Shown one piece after another: positions 1 through 6,075 of a stretch of 6,075 nt of DNA. The notes below the pieces were generated by a model, which saw only the letters and a program-made list of their open reading frames with translations, ran no database searches and was not told the origin of the DNA. The position numbers and the translations under genes were made by a program. Numbering within the stretch: position 1 is the first letter of the stretch; each line of letters opens with the position of its first letter. The stretch is from a virus, in the IMG/VR virus record IMGVR_UViG_3300020030_000065, positions 1-6,075 of that record. One strand, given 5' to 3'.

Positions 1-121
1 AATAGCCGATACAACTTATTAATATAAGATTTAATATCGACATCAGAAGAACTGTTACAGAGCCGAGTAAGGCACCGAGCATTATGTAATATAATTTCGT
101 CTTCATTGGTTAGGTGATGAT
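1..121. repeat. Terminal direct repeat, copy 1 (identical to 5955-6075); assembly overlap of a circular 5954-bp genome
   Basis: Base-by-base comparison shows 1-121 equals 5955-6075 with no mismatch, and the identity runs exactly to the window end. The offset is 5954. Confidence 0.95.
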
Positions 122-1325
122 TTAATGTAAGATACTGATAATAAGCACGAGTCACAGAAAGAATAGAATCGGAATCATAATCTATAATACCGAACCTTGC
201 CATTCTTTTCGGCGCGTCTGCAACAGCTCGAATAATTCTAGCAATCGCAACAGCATCGTCATAGCGAGCACTTGGGAATCGGGGCAATAAGGTACGGATA
301 TACGACATGGGGGGAGTTGATTTAACACTAATTCCATTGAAGTTATAGATTCGTCCATTAATGACAGAATCGATTTTTTGCTCGATCGCGTGATAAGGGT
401 CTTCATTCTGGTCGAAAACCTCACCCTTTTCAAAGAATCCAAGAGACGCTCTTTGCCTGGGTCTAAATGCGCGGCATGATCGATATAATAGGGGAGCAGA
501 ACTAAGGCTGTTAACGTAACTCGCAACGTACGAAGCAGCTCCACCGCGGGCAAGCTGGAAATCTGTACGACCGAGTTTCCAACTCTTATCGTGACACTGT
601 CGTAATACCTCTGAGACTTCTCTCGAGTTCGTGAATAATAAGATATGATAATGCGGGCGGAAATGGACTGGGGCATATTCACCCACAGCGTAGAAATGTA
701 GCGATTCATAAGTACCCAATTGTTGAAATAAATGTTTACGTAATCGTTTAATATAGTTCTGAACATCAACATAATTTAAGAATGGTATAAGGTTATTAAT
801 ACCATATTGTTCAGCAGCGGGATATACCGAATTGTCGACGGCCTGCGATTTATGGATAAAACTACGAATAGCATCCATACTAAGAAACCAATTGTCCTTA
901 GCAGGAACATATTTCTTAATTTCACGGTCATACGGCACCGTGCCTTGAACCTGCGTGAAGAATATATGACGCAATTGGGAAGAATCCTCAGGTTGATACT
1001 CAGAAACAGGGATATAAGAGTGGCATTCATAACCGAATACTTTATCTCCTGAAATGCTTAGAGTGTCTTCATAATCACTATGCAGAACCTCACAATTCAT
1101 CAGAGGGATATGTTCATTAGCATAAGTAAGCGTCACAAAATAAGAATACTTGAAAGCACTTCCAGCGGTCTTCACGCGCATGGACGCTTTTTTAGAACGC
1201 TTATGAATACAGTAATCACATTGACCGCAATCTACGGCAATACGTGCACCAGTGTAACGATTAGTTATGAAAGAACGATGCTGACAATGATCGACAGCTT
1301 TAAGCAAATCAGGAGTAAATTTCAT
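1..1325 (-). CDS. VP4: Replication initiation protein (Microviridae VP4, HUH rolling-circle endonuclease), N-terminal 441 codons. The ORF leaves the left edge and continues in frame at 5954 down to 5600, for 559 aa in total.
   Basis: Not in the ORF track because there is no in-window stop. Hand translation from the ATG at 1325-1323 gives MKFTPDLLKAVDHCQHRSFITNRYTGARIAVDCGQCDYCIHKRSK... with no stop down to position 1. It contains a Cys cluster CGQCDYC (1209-1229), motif I FVTLTY (1122-1139), HUH motif HYHILLF (633-653) and a Tyr motif YVASYV (513-530). The frame joins exactly to track ORF 5600-5968 (...KLYRLFLHVSK...). Confidence 0.92.
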   Translation of the reverse strand, partial: MKFTPDLLKAVDHCQHRSFITNRYTGARIAVDCGQCDYCIHKRSKKASMRVKTAGSAFKYSYFVTLTYANEHIPLMNCEVLHSDYEDTLSISGDKVFGYECHSYIPVSEYQPEDSSQLRHIFFTQVQGTVPYDREIKKYVPAKDNWFLSMDAIRSFIHKSQAVDNSVYPAAEQYGINNLIPFLNYVDVQNYIKRLRKHLFQQLGTYESLHFYAVGEYAPVHFRPHYHILLFTNSREVSEVLRQCHDKSWKLGRTDFQLARGGAASYVASYVNSLSSAPLLYRSCRAFRPRQRASLGFFEKGEVFDQNEDPYHAIEQKIDSVINGRIYNFNGISVKSTPPMSYIRTLLPRFPSARYDDAVAIARIIRAVADAPKRMARFGIIDYDSDSILSVTRAYYQYLTLNHHLTNEDEIILHNARCLTRLCNSSSDVDIKSYINKLYRL

Positions 1326-1327
1326 AA

Positions 1328-1636
1328 TTATTTACGTTTATCAATCACTTGGTAGCGATTACGCGGGCCAAATGAAATATGAATAAATGTAGGATAAATA
1401 ATAAGTTGATCAAAACGACACATATTATCAGCATAATTATGGATCATTTCAAGCAGCTTATTGAAACTAGTATTGCCATAAGGTTTAATGTCAATAGCCT
1501 CACCCGTCAAATGCTGAGAATTAGGAACACCATTACAAGCCTTATTCTGTTCCGGAGTACGTCTGGCACTCGTCACAGTGAAATGAACGTTAGAGAACAA
1601 CAGATACTCAAGAAAATGCATAAGAGAATAATTCAT
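1328..1636 (-). CDS. Zinc D-Ala-D-Ala carboxypeptidase-like peptidoglycan hydrolase (peptidase M15 / LAS superfamily); putative endolysin, 102 aa
   Basis: SQHLTGEAID (1490-1519) matches the M15 signature SxHxxGxAxD exactly. Upstream TSARRTPEQN resembles the SGYR(S/T)xxxN box, and a C-terminal His lies in FIHIS (His codon 1379-1381). There is no signal peptide or TM segment. The start overlaps the upstream ORF's stop (ATGA at 1633-1636), and the stop lies 2 nt before the Rep ATG. Confidence 0.8.
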   Translation of the reverse strand: MNYSLMHFLEYLLFSNVHFTVTSARRTPEQNKACNGVPNSQHLTGEAIDIKPYGNTSFNKLLEMIHNYADNMCRFDQLIIYPTFIHISFGPRNRYQVIDKRK

Positions 1637-1716
1637 AATCCAATAGCATTAAGAATATAACCAAGAGCAGCGGAAACAGCACCAATTACAATTTTCCAAA
1701 TATTATTACTTTTCAT
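1633..1716 (-). CDS. 27-aa single-pass membrane peptide MKSNNIWKIVIGAVSAALGYILNAIGL; holin-like lysis-accessory candidate
   Basis: This is the C-terminal part of track ORF 1633-1857, starting at the internal ATG 1716-1714. By my count 19 of 27 codons end in T, matching the bias in VP1. The T periodicity sits in this frame only downstream of the ORF64 stop. The peptide has a short polar N-terminus followed by a ~22-residue hydrophobic stretch. Its stop overlaps the peptidase start (ATGA). Confidence 0.55.
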   Translation of the reverse strand: MKSNNIWKIVIGAVSAALGYILNAIGL

Positions 1717-1900
1717 CGGCTTGAGTTTTAAGTTCAACAAAATTATTTTCTTCTTTAATCGAATCCACAACAACAATAAGACCCAGCGGAGAAACTCGCT
1801 CAGAATAGTTTCCAAGACCGTCAAGAGAATTGACGATATAAGGCGGTATAACATCACGACCAGTGGTTTTTTCTTTTAAGGAAATAATAAATTTCTGCAT
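1706..1900 (-). CDS. Hypothetical 64-aa soluble protein, the first gene after the non-coding region
   Basis: Track ORF with an ATG start. By my count 33 of 64 codons end in T, as in VP1, which supports this frame over the overlapping 74-aa frame. I recognise no family motif. Confidence 0.6.
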   Translation of the reverse strand: MQKFIISLKEKTTGRDVIPPYIVNSLDGLGNYSERVSPLGLIVVVDSIKEENNFVELKTQADEK

Positions 1901-1950
1901 AATTGTAAGATTTTAATATTAATAAACTAATGAGTTTGGTTTCTACGGAG

Positions 1951-1981
1951 CAAAGGAAAGTATAATTTTTGAATAAACAAA
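1951..1981 (-). promoter_or_regulatory. Candidate Bacteroidota-type promoter: TTTG (-33) then 19 nt then TTccTTTG (-7-like)
   Basis: The sense strand reads TTTG at 1981-1978 and TTCCTTTG at 1958-1951. The published Bacteroides consensus is TTTG-N19-21-TAnnTTTG, so there is one mismatch (T for A). It lies about 50 nt upstream of the ORF64 ATG, in the only sizeable AT-rich non-coding stretch. Confidence 0.25.
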
Positions 1982-2039
1982 ATATTTCGGAGTTTTTTTT
2001 TATTCTACGGTTAGGGTGTGAGTTGTGCGTTTATAGACA

Positions 2040-2288
2040 AGGGGGGGCCGAATTTGAGATGATAACTCAAATTTCCTCCGGACACAACTAGGGGCTTCGC
2101 TTGAATAACATAGGGGGTATAGGCACGGCAAGTCAAGTCTGTCTTGCCTTTGCGCACCTACGTGCTAAAATACCGGAGCGGAACGCTCCTCTAGGGAAGT
2201 CGCTCCGCTCCATTTTATACCAGGCCCTACGCGGGCGGCGGGTGTATATCGCTCCAGAGCCGCGATGGGCTCTTAGTCCTGAAGAATG
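2040..2288. other. G+C-rich, hairpin-dense non-coding element (structured RNA and/or ssDNA origin/terminator region)
   Basis: All three sense frames are closed. I hand-counted about 55% G+C over 2041-2280, against a visibly AT-rich genome. Hairpins: 2051-2058/2066-2073 (8 bp), 2127-2132/2143-2148 (6 bp), 2175-2180/2184-2189 (6 bp, GAA loop), 2224-2227/2233-2236 (4 bp), 2256-2261/2268-2273 (6 bp). Possible long-range pairs: 2044-2049/2223-2228 and 2076-2081/2173-2178. Homopolymers: G7 at 2041-2047 and G5 at 2114-2118. Confidence 0.6.
2051..2073. repeat. Perfect 8-bp inverted repeat with a 7-nt loop (aatttgag-atgataa-ctcaaatt)
   Basis: Read directly from the sequence. An AT-rich stem is flanked by G7CCG on one side and CCTCCGG on the other. 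On the sense strand the loop reads TTATCAT. Confidence 0.85.
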
Positions 2289-3392
2289 CTAGTAACCAAT
2301 ACCATTAGCACCATTATAAATAGTAGTGTTACGAGGGCCGTAATCATTACGGAAAATCTGAGCACCAGGACGCATAGCTCCAATTATATTACCAGCGCCT
2401 TGAAAAATACGAGATGCGTAATCTATAGCATTACGAAGGCCGTAAGAATCAAAATCCTTCTTAGCGTTACCGGCAGACCATCTGTAATAGTCCCGGATAG
2501 CTTTATCCTTAGAATATTGCATATTCTTACGGTTGTTTACATTTTTGTAATCCCATAGAGAATCGTAATATTGCGTATAGTAACCCATATTCGTAGCAGA
2601 TATTAGAGCATCAGCAGTGTCAGAAGCAATTTCATTAGAAATACGCTGACCTTGTGTCTGAGCAGCAATCTGGAGTGCACGCTGAATCTCAGTTTGGACC
2701 TGTTTTTCGGTTAAAGCACCTTGTTGAACAAGATTGTAGAGATACTGAGCTTTTGTAAGAAGATCCGCTTGCTGTTGGGCGTCCATATACTTATTTAATA
2801 TAGCCTGAGCATCAGCCTGTAGGTAAATATGCGATGTCTGAGCCGCAGTCAACTTACCAGCAGCAACAGCATTCTCAAGTTCCTGACGTTCTCTAGACTG
2901 GTCCAATTCAGCAGAAATACGACCAGTATTAGAATCCCAATAACCAGACTCACCAACACCAATATTCTTGTAATTAGTGTCTCCTATAATTTTTTTAGCT
3001 AAGAGGGGGGTAAGAGTCTCAACCTGATTAGACTCAGTAATAGCCTTCCGAGCCTGAGCAAATGTTGCCAATGCAGAATCAATACCAGATAAATCTACAT
3101 GGACACCTTGCATAGCAGGAGTAGAGGGAATAGTAGCCTGAGGAGAAGAACCAGGAGAAGCAGAAGCACCCGCACCAGTCGAACTAACAAATGGATTCAA
3201 ACCGCGGACAATCTGAGCAGCAGGAGAATTGTACTGATTCTGATAATCAACCATATACTTTTGCCATTGCCGAGACAACTGGGCTTCATTCTGGGCAGCT
3301 ACACGGTTCTGTGTAGCGATTAATTCATTTGTCGCATTCGCATTGGACTGCGACATAGAATTAATCATGCTACCCAATATTGAACCAATCAT
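2289..3392 (-). CDS. VP2: Minor capsid / DNA pilot protein VP2, 367 aa
   Basis: Track ORF. It lies downstream of the capsid gene. The N-terminal region QNRVAAQNEAQLSRQWQKYMVDYQNQYNSPAAQIVRGLNPF resembles the conserved Q/N-rich ...GLNP segment of microvirus pilot proteins. A G/A/S/P linker and Q-rich helical repeats follow. The start overlaps the upstream stop (ATGA at 3389-3392). Confidence 0.82.
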   Translation of the reverse strand: MIGSILGSMINSMSQSNANATNELIATQNRVAAQNEAQLSRQWQKYMVDYQNQYNSPAAQIVRGLNPFVSSTGAGASASPGSSPQATIPSTPAMQGVHVDLSGIDSALATFAQARKAITESNQVETLTPLLAKKIIGDTNYKNIGVGESGYWDSNTGRISAELDQSRERQELENAVAAGKLTAAQTSHIYLQADAQAILNKYMDAQQQADLLTKAQYLYNLVQQGALTEKQVQTEIQRALQIAAQTQGQRISNEIASDTADALISATNMGYYTQYYDSLWDYKNVNNRKNMQYSKDKAIRDYYRWSAGNAKKDFDSYGLRNAIDYASRIFQGAGNIIGAMRPGAQIFRNDYGPRNTTIYNGANGIGY

Positions 3393-3832
3393 TGAGCACT
3401 AGAGGCAGATGCGGGATCCGTAGACGGCGCTGCCTTATTCTCTGCCAGCATAGACTCAGCAATAGCGGATAATTCTGACTTCTCGCTAGCCAATTGCCGT
3501 AAAACAGCTTGTCTTTCAGACATCGTCTGACAATGCCGAGAAATGACACAGTCAAACCGTTCCTCATCTGTCATACTATCCATAGTAGTAGACTGAGTAG
3601 GATGCATTTGAGCTAAGATATTATTCACATTCATATCTCCAAGAAGACGACGATACTTCTCCTGGTTAAGGAGAATAGAAGTCATATCCATATACATATA
3701 CGAGCCGTCGGACAATTCCTCCAGCATAACCGAATCATATACACTAGCTTCATAACAGGGATTTCCCTCAATCAATTCAGGAGTAACACTATCCTGTTCA
3801 AACTCAGGATTTACATAAGCAAAATTTCTCAT
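3389..3832 (-). CDS. Acidic, Met-rich 147-aa protein between VP1 and VP2; internal scaffolding (VP3-like) candidate by position only
   Basis: The track ORF 3389-3844 begins at a TTG. The first ATG is at 3832-3830 (MRNFAYVNPEF...), 12 nt after the VP1 stop. The size and acidity fit a scaffold, but I do not see the conserved gokushovirus VP3 motifs. Confidence 0.55.
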   Translation of the reverse strand: MRNFAYVNPEFEQDSVTPELIEGNPCYEASVYDSVMLEELSDGSYMYMDMTSILLNQEKYRRLLGDMNVNNILAQMHPTQSTTMDSMTDEERFDCVISRHCQTMSERQAVLRQLASEKSELSAIAESMLAENKAAPSTDPASASSAQ

Positions 3833-3844
3833 AACGACACACAA

Positions 3845-5584
3845 TTAATAAGGTAAACCATTTCTATCCAAGTTCTGTACAGCATACACTTGGAAGTTAA
3901 CATTACATAATAACTGGTCATAAGCCACATTATAATTACTAGTAGTAATCTGCGGCTCAAATATAGAATTCAGCTGTTGAGGACGAATCTTAAATGACTG
4001 ATAACTCAATGAAGACTGACCAGAAACCTGAACCTGAGAACCTTGAAGCGGAGCAGCCCAAGACTGATAAGCAGCAGCAGGACGAAATGCACCATGAACC
4101 GTGTCAACAGCAGATTTCCACTGCCAATAGCGAAGATTATAACCAATATTGCCAGTAGGAGAGGACGGACTATTATTAAGCGCCAGAGAAGGAACAGGCT
4201 GCATACCTAACTGGTCGAATGCAGGTTGGGGGAAGTCAGAAACAGACGTACATAGCAACTGAGGATTATGACCTTTAAGCGACCAGTCGAGCAGAGGAAC
4301 AGCATGATAAACACACATAATTACCTGATGCTCAGCACCACAATCATAATTAATAACATGACCAGACTTAGAGTCAACACCTTTACCAGCGATAACAGCT
4401 TGAGAGTTATCAGCAGTCAAGTTAGTATTCAAAACCTCATTAATATTGATAACATTAGACCAACCTCCAATATAGTGGGCATGGTTACCCATGTATTCAG
4501 GGGCTTTAATGCCAAACTGAGCAGCCATCTGGTCTGAATAATCCTTACTACTAAATTGTACTACTTCTTTCCAGCGCTGTAAGTATTCAGTTGCACGGAT
4601 TGAGAGAGCGGATAGGTCAGAGTTAACCTGTAAACCACGAATAGAAGTATAAGCGCTAGAAGTAACAACATTTGTAGTATTAGCAGGATTGTTAACAGCA
4701 GAATTAGTACCACCAATAACACCAGAAGAAGCAATCACGCGGGAAGAAGGCTCAGACGACATTTGAGAAGAAGGCAGAACAGCTACCGAGCCATACTGAG
4801 AAGCGGGAAGCACGCCGAGGAAATAATCCTTAGGATAGTTCGCATAGCGCAACTTAATCATATCGGCAGAAATCTCAACAGAACTCCCGCCGTCCCAATA
4901 ATCGACATTATAAGAATAAGCCAAATGTTTTTCCCACTGAGAATTGGAGAAGAAATCGAAGTAGATTTTCTGATAGGCAAAAATAGGAAGAAGGTTCAAA
5001 TTAATAGAAGTACCGTAAATAAGTGGATTCTGAGAATCCGACAACGAAGTGGTATCAAGACCAAGATACTGCATGGTAATATCTTTCTTTTTAGCATTTC
5101 CAGTACCAATAAATGAACCATAACCAAGCATATCCAATAGCTTACAAGAGCCGTAGGCGAAGCCAAAACCAGCGTCATCAACAGTATTAGCAGTTACACG
5201 AGCCTGGATTTCAGCAGATATATTACCAACCGGAGCATAGGGAACACTAGATAACTGTGATGTATTAGCAGAATTAGAAGCAGCAGAAGTCATATAGTCC
5301 GACATCTGGGTAAATGCCTGTGGGAGCGCACGAGAAATCAGTCGTAACGGCACAGCGTAGAAGTCATAATATTCCTTGATACGCGTATAAGCAGCCGTAT
5401 TCACGGGGACAGTACGGGTAAACCAGTCAGAAGAAATACGATACTTAGTACCAGGAATGGCAATCTGCCAATAGCACGGAAGAATTTCTCCGATTTTTGC
5501 CGTAAACAATTTTTTACTAGACAAATCAAAGGAAGAGCGATGTACGGCAACTCTCGCTCGGTCTAGTGGGTTAAAATCACTCAT
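3845..5584 (-). CDS. VP1: Major capsid protein VP1 (Microviridae F-like jelly-roll capsid), 579 aa
   Basis: Track ORF. The N-terminus ...VHRSSFDLSSKKLFTAKIGEILPCYWQIAIPGTKYRIS matches the hallmark microvirus capsid start (H/QRS.FDLS....T...G.L.P.....LPG). The C-terminus ...NFQVYAVQNLDRNGLPY is typical. An S/T/N-rich insertion spans aa 271-323. Confidence 0.97.
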   Translation of the reverse strand: MSDFNPLDRARVAVHRSSFDLSSKKLFTAKIGEILPCYWQIAIPGTKYRISSDWFTRTVPVNTAAYTRIKEYYDFYAVPLRLISRALPQAFTQMSDYMTSAASNSANTSQLSSVPYAPVGNISAEIQARVTANTVDDAGFGFAYGSCKLLDMLGYGSFIGTGNAKKKDITMQYLGLDTTSLSDSQNPLIYGTSINLNLLPIFAYQKIYFDFFSNSQWEKHLAYSYNVDYWDGGSSVEISADMIKLRYANYPKDYFLGVLPASQYGSVAVLPSSQMSSEPSSRVIASSGVIGGTNSAVNNPANTTNVVTSSAYTSIRGLQVNSDLSALSIRATEYLQRWKEVVQFSSKDYSDQMAAQFGIKAPEYMGNHAHYIGGWSNVININEVLNTNLTADNSQAVIAGKGVDSKSGHVINYDCGAEHQVIMCVYHAVPLLDWSLKGHNPQLLCTSVSDFPQPAFDQLGMQPVPSLALNNSPSSPTGNIGYNLRYWQWKSAVDTVHGAFRPAAAYQSWAAPLQGSQVQVSGQSSLSYQSFKIRPQQLNSIFEPQITTSNYNVAYDQLLCNVNFQVYAVQNLDRNGLPY

Positions 5585-5599
5585 AATTAATAATTTAAA

Positions 5600-6075
5600 T
5601 TAGACCATACGGTTAAATATATTATTAGCATCATTAAGCTTCTTATGCTTAATCATATCACGACAGAATGTTGCACTACGGAACCTGAGTTGGTCAAGGA
5701 TCTGAATTGTTTCACGTGAAATATTCGACAAGACATCAATCTCTTGCCCGTTCTGAGGCAACGCAAACATACAATCTGAGATTTCAGGGTATTGGGCACG
5801 GATGTTATATGCATCTCGTAGACTTTCATAATTTTTTTTCGTCTCATATTCTATTCCAGTTTTGACGATAAACATAATACGATTGGCATAAGGATCAAGA
5901 TTATCACCGATGGAAGGCAGATGCCAATTCCTAAGAAACTTACTGACATGAAGGAATAGCCGATACAACTTATTAATATAAGATTTAATATCGACATCAG
6001 AAGAACTGTTACAGAGCCGAGTAAGGCACCGAGCATTATGTAATATAATTTCGTCTTCATTGGTTAGGTGATGAT
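5600..6075 (-). CDS. VP4: Replication initiation protein VP4, C-terminal portion (stop at 5600-5602). 5955-6075 duplicates 1-121, so the unique part is 5600-5954.
   Basis: Track ORF 5600-5968 starts only at an internal TTG. The frame stays open to the window end and is in phase with the 1-1325 segment across the 5954-bp circle: 1325 + 355 = 1680 nt, which is 559 codons plus a stop. Confidence 0.9.
   Translation of the reverse strand, partial: HHLTNEDEIILHNARCLTRLCNSSSDVDIKSYINKLYRLFLHVSKFLRNWHLPSIGDNLDPYANRIMFIVKTGIEYETKKNYESLRDAYNIRAQYPEISDCMFALPQNGQEIDVLSNISRETIQILDQLRFRSATFCRDMIKHKKLNDANNIFNRMV
5955..6075. repeat. Terminal direct repeat, copy 2 (identical to 1-121)
   Basis: Same comparison as for copy 1. 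Confidence 0.95.

Follow-up and report, generated by a model that had tools for sequence, protein, structure and literature searches.

A covarying intergenic fold in gut microviruses, a candidate single-stranded DNA replication-origin region

At the complementary-strand origins (oric) of the Microviridae phages G4, St-1 and alpha3, a non-coding stretch of the viral strand forms a cluster of stable hairpins, including a mini-hairpin of the GCGNNAGC type, with the proposed role of a mark, free of single-stranded DNA-binding protein (SSB), for the RNA primer of a host enzyme (PMC13037366). The motifs GCGNAGC, GCGNNAGC and CCGAAGG form extraordinarily stable mini-hairpins in DNA that are much weaker as RNA and bind SSB poorly, and such mini-hairpins are also found at ssiA of RSF1010 and in the promoters of the N4 virion polymerase (Hirao review, PMC13037366). 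In the Ff phages (M13, f1 and fd), a single large intergenic region located directly upstream of the replication-gene promoter combines the transcription end with the hairpins of the minus origin and with the plus origin; the ssoA, ssoU, ssoT and ssoW elements of rolling-circle replication (RCR) plasmids are folded, orientation-specific non-coding cassettes of about 160 nucleotides (nt) that are exchanged between replicons and limit host range (PMC5703833); and, in the stem-loop origins of CRESS-DNA viruses, a conserved motif resides in the unpaired loop. For the conserved intergenic hairpins of reekeekee- and roodoodooviruses, which show compensatory changes, a role as initiation sites has been proposed, and a start site for the complementary strand is required by every microvirus (PMC9865509, section 3.8 for the latter). 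Here we analyze a structured intergenic element in a microvirus genome, the stretch of 6,075 nt that spans positions 1 to 6,075 of the IMG/VR record IMGVR_UViG_3300020030_000065 (hereafter, the window). To our knowledge, based on the literature searched, neither replication origin has been located in the Bacteroidota-associated (Alpavirinae-like) microviruses.

The element occupies positions 2014..2288 on the minus strand of the window, the strand that carries all the genes; the packaged strand of Microviridae has the same polarity as the mRNA, so that this is also the virion strand. It consists of a G+C-rich 5' cassette (2106..2288), with the hairpins Ha, Hb, Hx, Hy, Hc and Hd, that is optional in the family, and a 3' core module (2014-2105), a three-way fold of the helices P1, P2 and P3 accompanied by the mini-hairpin mini0, in which an invariant CTTGTCYATAAAC segment stays open. 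An earlier note on this DNA, made from the sequence alone, had placed a structured element at 2040-2288; that a structured element is present there holds, and its true extent reaches to about 2014.

The most likely reading, which we consider about an even bet (probability of roughly 0.5), is that this element is a folded single-stranded (ss) DNA replication-origin region on the packaged strand, the role that the earlier note had listed as a complementary-strand origin read as folded ssDNA and that is favored here by Watson-Crick covariation, GCGNAGC motifs on the virion strand, cassette exchange and a position, in several relatives, between a terminator and a promoter. Under this scenario, when the circular ssDNA enters the cell, SSB would cover most of the strand, and the element of about 275 nt would instead fold into hairpins nucleated by the stable d(GCGNAGC)-type mini-hairpins. 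The 5' cassette would be an exchangeable complementary-strand (minus) origin or single-strand initiation cassette, recognized by the host primase or RNA polymerase, which would lead to the conversion of the ssDNA into the double-stranded replicative form. The 3' module would keep its pyrimidine tract and the invariant CTTGTCYATAAAC single-stranded and serve as the core origin, predicted to be, most likely, the site of viral-strand nicking and re-joining by Rep, with CTTGTCYATAAACG as the candidate cleavage sequence; a primer start in the core loop is an equally mechanical possibility, so that the core may serve either of the two origins. The data show the structure of the element, its conservation, its strand, its modularity and its place relative to terminator and promoter; its action at the level of ssDNA and the origin assigned to each module are inferred.

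Compared with the described systems, the element shares with the G4-type oric the presence of stable hairpins in non-coding viral-strand DNA and the mini-hairpins GCGGAGC (2208-2202), GCGAAGC (2100-2094) and CCGGAGG (2081-2075). Unlike these origins, with which we noticed no sequence similarity, it contains about ten helices in place of three hairpins, along with a long-range closing stem and crossing complementarities, and its host is probably a member of Bacteroidota. The arrangement of the Ff intergenic region is echoed here by the order of putative minus-origin hairpins, putative plus origin and promoter of the Rep operon, and the Rep protein contains the Pfam domain REP_ORF2-G2P, as in Ff phages. 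Furthermore, the core loop resembles the gpII-binding core of M13 (CTCTTGT...ACAAC...TCA) with a score of 14 vs 9.0 +/- 1.3, which was reached by 12 of the 2000 shuffles; this similarity is a weak lead that does not extend to distant relatives. The hairpins of the element are not homologous to those of the Ff phages, and no packaging hairpin is expected in a microvirus.

The 5' cassette can be likened to the sso elements because it is strand-specific, is swapped or absent among close relatives and, at about 170-180 nt, falls within the 150-300 nt size range of such folded cassettes; the CS-6 motif of ssoA (TAGCGW) is absent from 1901-2288, and a blastn search of PLSDB (72,556 plasmids) gave no match. 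With RSF1010 ssiA/ssiB and the N4 promoters, the element has in common identical heptamers (CCGAAGG and GCGGAGC/GCGAAGC, with GGA/GAA loops), but those signals are single hairpins read by plasmid or phage enzymes, whereas the present phage encodes no primase or polymerase. As in the CRESS-DNA virus origins, a conserved motif lies in an unpaired loop closed by covarying stems, although here the loop is about 22 nt long and belongs to a three-way fold, in contrast to the simple nonanucleotide loop, and the sequences of the CRESS-DNA virus origins and of the reekeekee- and roodoodoovirus hairpins are unrelated to that of the element. Folded ssDNA origin regions located between the genes of ssDNA phages are a classical kind of element; what is new is the three-way core with an open invariant loop, the crossing helices, the clusters of GNA mini-hairpins, the depth of conservation across divergent Reps and the exchangeable upstream cassettes. 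The element is described neither in Rfam nor in the literature searched.

A conserved core fold and an exchangeable cassette

Covariation was assessed on an alignment of 95 distinct copies of the gene-sense strand (alignment A2), for twelve helices obtained from RNAalifold, an unbiased mutual-information scan and inspection of variants. Standard base pairs fill 99.4% of the alignment cells of these helices, compared to 95.1% in shuffles; 17 pairs are changed on both sides (8.6 +/- 1.2 in shuffles), and 240 cells are compensated (60 in shuffles), with none of the 500 shuffles reaching the observed values of pairing, two-sided change or compensation. When the partners are slid by 1-3 columns, pairing falls to 27-44%. 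The earlier count of at least five local hairpins is confirmed: more than five are present, with support from covariation. The two long-range helices that had been suggested to close a multi-branch domain fared poorly: 2044-2049/2223-2228 is paired in 59% and 2076-2081/2173-2178 in 78% of the cells, neither shows compensation, and C-A and G-G are the commonest states at key positions.

In the core module, mini0 (GCGAAGC, 2100-2094) marks the 5' edge and is invariant in the 95 sequences save for an A/G change in its loop. The long-range closing stem P1 (AGTTGTGT, 2089-2082, paired with GCACAACT, 2028-2021), in which three pairs are compensated, encloses P2, P3 and the open loop. P2 is the mini-hairpin CCGGAGG (2081-2075), represented in relatives by GCGAAGC, CCGAAGG, ACGAAGT, GCGAAAGC, CCGTAGG or CCGATAGG, with the closing pair being GC in 55, CG in 31 and AT in 8 sequences. 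P3 is a hairpin of 8-9 base pairs (bp), AATTTGAG-TTATCAT-CTCAAATT (2073-2066 with 2058-2051), with a conserved TTATCMT loop and compensation at 6 of the 8 pairs. Between P3 and the 3' arm of P1 lies a single-stranded segment (2050-2029) that consists of a pyrimidine tract followed by the invariant CTTGTCTATAAAC; TGTC and ATAAACG within it are invariant in all 95 sequences. This segment is unpaired in five independent folds, and CTTGTCYATAAAC is closed by P1 in five lineages. A conserved single-stranded motif flanked by covarying stems is the design of rolling-circle nick sites, and we take this module to be the core origin, with the open loop as a candidate Rep nick site or priming start.

The 5' cassette begins with Ha (2248..2273), which contains the stems S1 (AGAGCC/GGCTCT, 2273-2268 with 2261-2256) and S2 (ATCGC/GCGAT, 2266-2262 with 2252-2248). 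The S1 variants AGAGCC/GGCTCT, AAAGCC/GGCTTT and GGGCC/GGCCC are complementary throughout, and pair 44:56 of S2 is GC in 80, AT in 11 and CG in 2 sequences; the two stems overlap and form a pseudoknot or are alternative folds. Hb (GCCC-GCGTA-GGGC, 2236-2233 with 2227-2224; span 2224..2240) is crossed by a helix between the upstream CGC (2240-2238) and the GCG of its loop (2232-2230): across 213 distinct sequences, the crossing column pair 67:77 is CG in 192, TA in 11 and GC in 10, with 0 mismatches, and the column pair 72:82 is CG in 203, GC in 7 and AT in 2. A long-range pairing, 67-69/265-267, that was proposed by RNAalifold is replaced by this covarying local pairing, 67-69/75-77. Hx is the mini-hairpin GCGGAGC (2208-2202), GCGAAGC in some relatives. 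It is followed by the 6-bp Hy (GGAGCG-TTC-CGCTCC, 2189-2184 with 2180-2175), where the polymorphic pair is G:C in 111, A:T in 79, A:C in 1 and G:T in 0 sequences; in some relatives, GCGTAGC, GCGCAGC or GCGAAGC mini-hairpins take the place of Hy. Hc (GCAC-GTAG-GTGC, 2165-2162 with 2157-2154) has a loop of 3 or 4 nt in relatives (GGA, AGA, GTAG, GAAG and others), and its polymorphic pair is A:T in 145 and G:C in 53 sequences, with no other combination. The long hairpin Hd (GCA-GGCAAG ... CTTGCC-TGC, 2153-2143 with 2132-2123; helix 8) is 98.9% paired and, at its apex, varies in sequence and length while retaining complementarity.

An alternative single long hairpin over 2175-2211 (fold I, inverted repeat I4) would require 98 G-T and 32 A-C cells; the two-hairpin alternative is purely Watson-Crick, with pair 121:135 covarying between GC (60) and AT (34), so that fold I is possible as an alternative structure only. 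The trinucleotide CTG is nearly invariant after Hb (GGGCCTG), and GTC is present in the open loop; CTG is the initiation trinucleotide of the Escherichia coli primase DnaG and may not be that of the host of this phage.

Copies of the element with 72-94% identity occur in 35 microviruses in GenBank, which come from samples of lemur, dog, human and marmot, and degenerate patterns derived from it match at least 119 IMG/VR viral contigs and at least 120 metagenome contigs; among the matches listed, essentially all contigs are of about 6 kb, and many are labelled human gut. Matches of the search pattern in contigs of giant viruses and large phages and in two bacterial metagenome-assembled genomes appear to be due to chance, with unrelated sequence and flanks, several of them clearly coding. 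The 5' cassette is absent or replaced in loci L009, L039, L066, L075, L091 and L276-L277; among these, L039, L066, L075 and L091 are close relatives in which it is missing, whereas L020 keeps one hairpin and Microvirus mar56 (L009/L278) has an unrelated cassette in its place. The 3' module is found in every copy, partly by construction, as it served as the search pattern.

Distant microviruses with Rep proteins only about 30% identical to that of the window all have a large intergenic region after the pilot gene. The 3' architecture is retained in three of these, Bajarodmic virus 1134, Dulem virus 245 and Dulem virus 263, with a closing P1 of 8-9 bp, P3 and an unpaired pyrimidine tract that has CTYGYC(Y)TAT at its end. 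In these viruses, as well as in mar56, the P1 arms are wholly different in sequence and yet complementary. The GCGAAGC heptamer and a CCGNAGG mini-hairpin occur at the same places in two of the three, and mini0 is retained in mar56, bajarodmic 1134 and Dulem 245. Independent DNA folds of five lineages, including the three with the divergent Rep proteins, each yield P1, P3 and the open loop, with z-scores down to -5.7. Because this fold recurs in distant lineages with different stems, the core module is old and under strong constraint, and the upstream cassette is exchangeable.

The element and the Rep module segregate together, which fits the origin reading. In Dulem viruses 237, 239, 242, 254 and 255, positions 4-2284, which encompass Rep, the peptidase, the small open reading frames (ORFs) and the element, are about 89% identical to the window, and the capsid and pilot genes are diverged or different; in 237, 242, 254 and 255, the homology ends at 2284, the VP2 boundary, indicating that the element travels with Rep in recombinants. 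The boundaries of the recombination module map to 2284-2288 and approximately 5584-5600.

Several minor features of this region are worth mentioning. The linker between the two modules (between 2106 and 2115; columns 200-257 of A2; loci L006, L010, L011, L022 and L075) is an insertion hot spot: CTGTATACATCCAC, which includes the palindrome GTATAC, is found in most relatives but not in the window, an additional hairpin of about 35 nt (CCTAGATCTATTAGTAATGGATCTATG) is present in L006 and L010, and L011 and L075 contain about 150 nt of additional unrelated sequence. In distant relatives, the intergenic regions that follow the pilot gene are 390-610 nt long, with quite different upstream cassettes (3401-3993 in mar56, 3410-4021 in L276 and 3581-3971 in L277). 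In mar56, CCCCACAGCGCAGC is repeated in tandem and is accompanied by two mini-hairpins each of GCGTAGC and CCGCAGG, along with long runs of A and of T.

Single-stranded DNA, RNA and other explanations

The intergenic region 1901-2288 is the only one longer than 15 nt in this genome, as the earlier note had recognized, and its estimate of a G+C content of about 55% for an element embedded in an AT-rich phage is borne out: G+C is 54.6% for 2040-2288 (56% for the 5' cassette), compared to 40.6% for the genome, a difference of 14 percentage points, and 23% for the AT-rich 1901-2013. Folding is also better than in shuffled controls, a comparison that the earlier note had proposed. With dinucleotide shuffles, the z-scores of RNA folding are -3.28 for the minus strand and -2.47 for the plus strand; with DNA parameters, they are -3.89 (0 of 200 shuffles as good) and -2.55 for the 5' module and -2.18 and -1.46 for the 3' part. 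The G runs of the plus strand, that is, C runs of the virion strand, to which attention had been drawn, are not conserved, with a variable pyrimidine tract in their place in relatives, and we accordingly discarded an i-motif or G-quadruplex formed by these runs.

The purity of base pairing bears on the choice between ssDNA and RNA. Natural RNA helices usually tolerate G-U at polymorphic pairs. Among the supported helices, G-T accounts for about 20 of approximately 4500 cells (one invariant terminal T-G excluded), and the two most polymorphic pairs show no wobble in about 400 cells; by contrast, G-T(U) pairs can be read in the sequences of the terminator hairpins that precede the element in relatives. 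The near-pure Watson-Crick covariation of the supported helices points to ssDNA, and it also contradicts the earlier suggestion that G-T pairs hint at an RNA transcribed from the strand opposite to the genes, given that the strand-specific motifs, too, are on the minus strand.

The distribution of mini-hairpin motifs also points to ssDNA. The element is studded with GCGNAGC, GCGNNAGC and CCGAAGG heptamers and octamers. Across 114 genomes, GCGNAGC occurs on the sense strand at 4.79 per kb in the intergenic region and at 0.11 per kb in the rest of the genome, a 43-fold excess that is still about 26-fold when the one copy per genome that is there by ascertainment is left out, and the region contains 284 copies on the sense strand vs 4 on the antisense strand. 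In the unrelated upstream cassettes of mar56, bajarodmic 1134 and Dulem 245, the sense-strand counts of mini-hairpin motifs are 8, 5 and 5, compared to antisense-strand counts of 0, 0 and 1, respectively. Furthermore, the genome has no other non-coding DNA in which the required complementary-strand start could reside, which makes the intergenic element the candidate for this origin; the same reasoning has been spelled out for other microvirus clades (PMC9865509).

The location of the element with respect to transcription signals points the same way. Downstream of it, at 1951-1981 on the minus strand, there is a Bacteroidetes-type promoter, with a -33 TTTG (1981-1978) and a -7 box TTCCTTTG (1958-1951) that differs from TAnnTTTG by one mismatch and is spaced about 19 nt from the -33 TTTG. 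A perfect TAnnTTTG is found 50-69 nt after the core in 80 of 118 related genomes, and in 76 of these 80, TTTG occurs 14-30 nt upstream of the -7 box. This predicted promoter, apparently the only one in the genome, would drive the 64-aa ORF, the peptidase and Rep, and its type suggests a Bacteroidota host and one genome-long transcription unit. In L039, L066, L153 and Dulem virus 241, the VP2 stop is followed by a terminator-like hairpin with a T run and then by the element, which thus lies between the point where the single transcription unit ends and the point where it begins.

A number of observations weigh against an ssDNA origin. In the window, the element adjoins the VP2 stop without a separate terminator upstream and, for that reason, is probably transcribed at least in part. 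Hy together with GGTATTTTAG (2165-2174) passes a simple terminator scan, with a T run that is short and interrupted. Sense RNA has the sequence of the virion strand, so that strand-specific motifs alone cannot tell ssDNA from RNA of mRNA sense; the low frequency of wobble pairs could also result from the shortness of the stems; and the two covarying crossing, pseudoknot-like complementarities are more familiar in RNA than in DNA. The covariation counts come from related, recombining sequences and do not represent independent events. The 5' cassette is dispensable or redundant because genomes that lack it are evidently viable. Finally, apart from the short and weakly significant M13 match, the element shows no sequence similarity to characterized origins.

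Several of these observations would be accommodated by an element that works as folded RNA of the sense strand and forms the 3' end of the single polycistronic transcript, such as a compound terminator, a stabilizer or a processing signal, or by a processed non-coding RNA, an alternative that the earlier note had listed among its candidate roles and that now appears less likely, although the lack of a separate terminator ahead of the element in the window continues to speak for it. The terminator-like character of Hy with GGTATTTTAG, the terminator-like scoring, in L091, of P3 with the ensuing pyrimidine tract, the sense-strand RNA fold (z of -3.3, with the centroid close to the minimum free energy structure) and the covarying crossing helices all fit such an RNA. 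Set against these are the virtual absence of G-U at polymorphic pairs and the abundance of 3-nt loops of the GNA type, special in DNA but weak in RNA (PMC13037366). In several relatives, moreover, a canonical terminator, better than Hy with GGTATTTTAG and separate from it, precedes the whole element, and inspection of alignment A1 by eye revealed no conserved promoter of the Bacteroidetes type within the element, immediately ahead of it or on the plus strand. An extent of about 275 nt, ten hairpins and invariant single-stranded blocks far exceed the needs of a terminator. In line with the earlier note, which did not recognize any Rfam family in the element, none was detected: cmscan with the 4227 models of Rfam 15 detected no match in the region at E-values up to 10, nor in five relatives at E-values up to 1, and ARAGORN predicted neither a tRNA nor a tmRNA in the region. 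On balance, we regard a sense-strand RNA as the unlikely, albeit serious, alternative.

Another possibility is that the element functions solely as a viral-strand (plus) origin, with Rep binding the hairpins and nicking the loop, and complementary-strand priming occurring elsewhere or non-specifically. The invariant motif in a loop closed by covarying stems, which resembles CRESS-DNA virus origins, the linkage to the Rep module in recombinants, the weak similarity to the M13 plus-origin core and the G2P-related Pfam domain in Rep are all compatible with this option. However, the optional 5' cassette gives way to unrelated cassettes in genomes with similar Rep proteins, a pattern that better fits a host-directed signal than a Rep-specific one; the mini-hairpin motif has been tied to priming and initiation on ssDNA (PMC13037366), and no other non-coding DNA is available to hold a minus origin. 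We therefore deem a plus origin alone to be rather improbable.

A dif-like attP site of 28 nt for XerC/D-mediated integration, as proposed for Alpavirinae proviruses in Bacteroidetes, appears to be very unlikely. Related microviruses are indeed known as proviruses flanked by dif-like sites, and folded ssDNA att sites are known from CTX-phi (PMC3091885), but no site in the genome agrees with the bacterial dif consensus at more than 16 of 21 informative positions, which is at shuffle level (mean of 15 and maximum of 17), and this top-scoring site lies outside the intergenic region. A scan of 185,579 bacterial and archaeal species genomes with the 3' module found no integrated copy, with only two matches, both due to chance, and the metagenome copies of the 5' cassette, among the matches listed, are all on contigs of at most 9.6 kb.

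An antisense (plus-strand) RNA, a horizontally acquired host-derived module, as the earlier note had entertained, or a decayed coding remnant could be invoked on account of the elevated G+C content and the short hypothetical ORFs annotated across the element in some database records, but are all highly improbable: the minus strand is the one that folds better and that carries the strand-specific motifs, with no conserved promoter motif seen by eye on the plus strand in A1; in the metagenome sample searched with the 5' cassette, matches come only from microvirus-sized contigs, and there are none in plasmids nor, chance matches aside, in the bacterial and archaeal genomes scanned with the 3' module; and the alignment contains many 1-2-nt indels, with compensation that tracks pairing and not codons.

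Two other origin candidates were considered and rejected. A 27-mer that resembles the phiX174 origin, CAATATGGTATTAATAACCTTATACCA, located within Rep (809-783, minus strand), is itself a small inverted repeat and scores 15 against the 30-nt phiX174 origin, a value reached by 2 of the 200 shuffles; it is conserved neither at synonymous sites nor at the amino acid level in 193 relatives and is thus attributed to chance. The nick-type heptamer CTTGATA shows no enrichment.

Microviruses belong to the most abundant human gut phages, and the folded ssDNA origin reading of the element would have broader implications. The covariation-backed map of helices, open loop and strand polarity is common to hundreds of genomes, with the outline kept across Reps that are about 30% identical, and would represent the first testable origin map for this very abundant group of gut phages; the element could also be used as a nucleotide marker for the clade. 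Swapping of origin cassettes may contribute to host range, and the link between GNA mini-hairpins and initiation on ssDNA would be extended from a few model replicons of Enterobacteria to a large group of uncultured phages. Far more tentatively, one could speculate that clusters of GCGNAGC-type mini-hairpins on exchangeable cassettes, combined with a three-way-junction core, comprise a modular origin code of gut Bacteroidota ssDNA phages, in which the cassettes would set the host priming enzyme, and hence the host, and the core with its crossing helices would be an ssDNA tertiary fold read by Rep and the host; or else, the same fold might represent an undescribed class of sense-strand RNAs.

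Gene neighborhood and minor features

The window represents a circular microvirus genome, 5954 nt in length, and has an exact terminal redundancy of 121 nt (1-121 is identical to 5955-6075), the assembly being circularly permuted. In L023, L128 and L202, two copies of the element are found about 6.1 kb apart, that is, these genomes were assembled as concatemers. On the minus strand, the gene for Rep extends from 1325 across the junction to approximately 5600, followed by those for the major capsid protein (5584-3845, Pfam Phage_F), a 151-aa ORF (3844-3389) that is located between the capsid and pilot genes and overlaps VP2 by ATGA, and the pilot protein VP2 (3392-2289). The 151-aa ORF has no Pfam match; in Dulem 245, Dulem 263 and bajarodmic 1134, the ORF in the equivalent position carries the annotation 'internal scaffolding protein'.

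After the 388-nt intergenic region (2288-1901), there are a 64-aa ORF (1900-1706), a short hydrophobic ORF within 1857-1633 that ends with MKSNNIWKIVIGAVSAALGYILNAIGL, and a 102-aa peptidase (1636-1328, Pfam Peptidase_M15_3). The segment 1328-1900, between the intergenic region and Rep, is likely to be a lysis cassette that would consist of a holin-like peptide and an endolysin. The genome has the layout that Roux et al. reported for the Alpavirinae type, in which the peptidase is encoded between VP2 and VP4 (PMC3394797).

Two additional features surround the promoter. An exact 8-nt direct repeat (TTCTACGG on the plus strand, CCGTAGAA on the gene strand) flanks it at 1941-1948 and 2003-2010, with one copy just past the core module and the other near the predicted transcription start; TAGAA at the second repeat site is kept in relatives. 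Directly upstream of the -33 box, at 1993-2001, there is a run of nine A on the gene strand (T9 on the plus strand), conserved as A6-A9 in relatives, which may be an UP-like element or a bend between the origin and the promoter.

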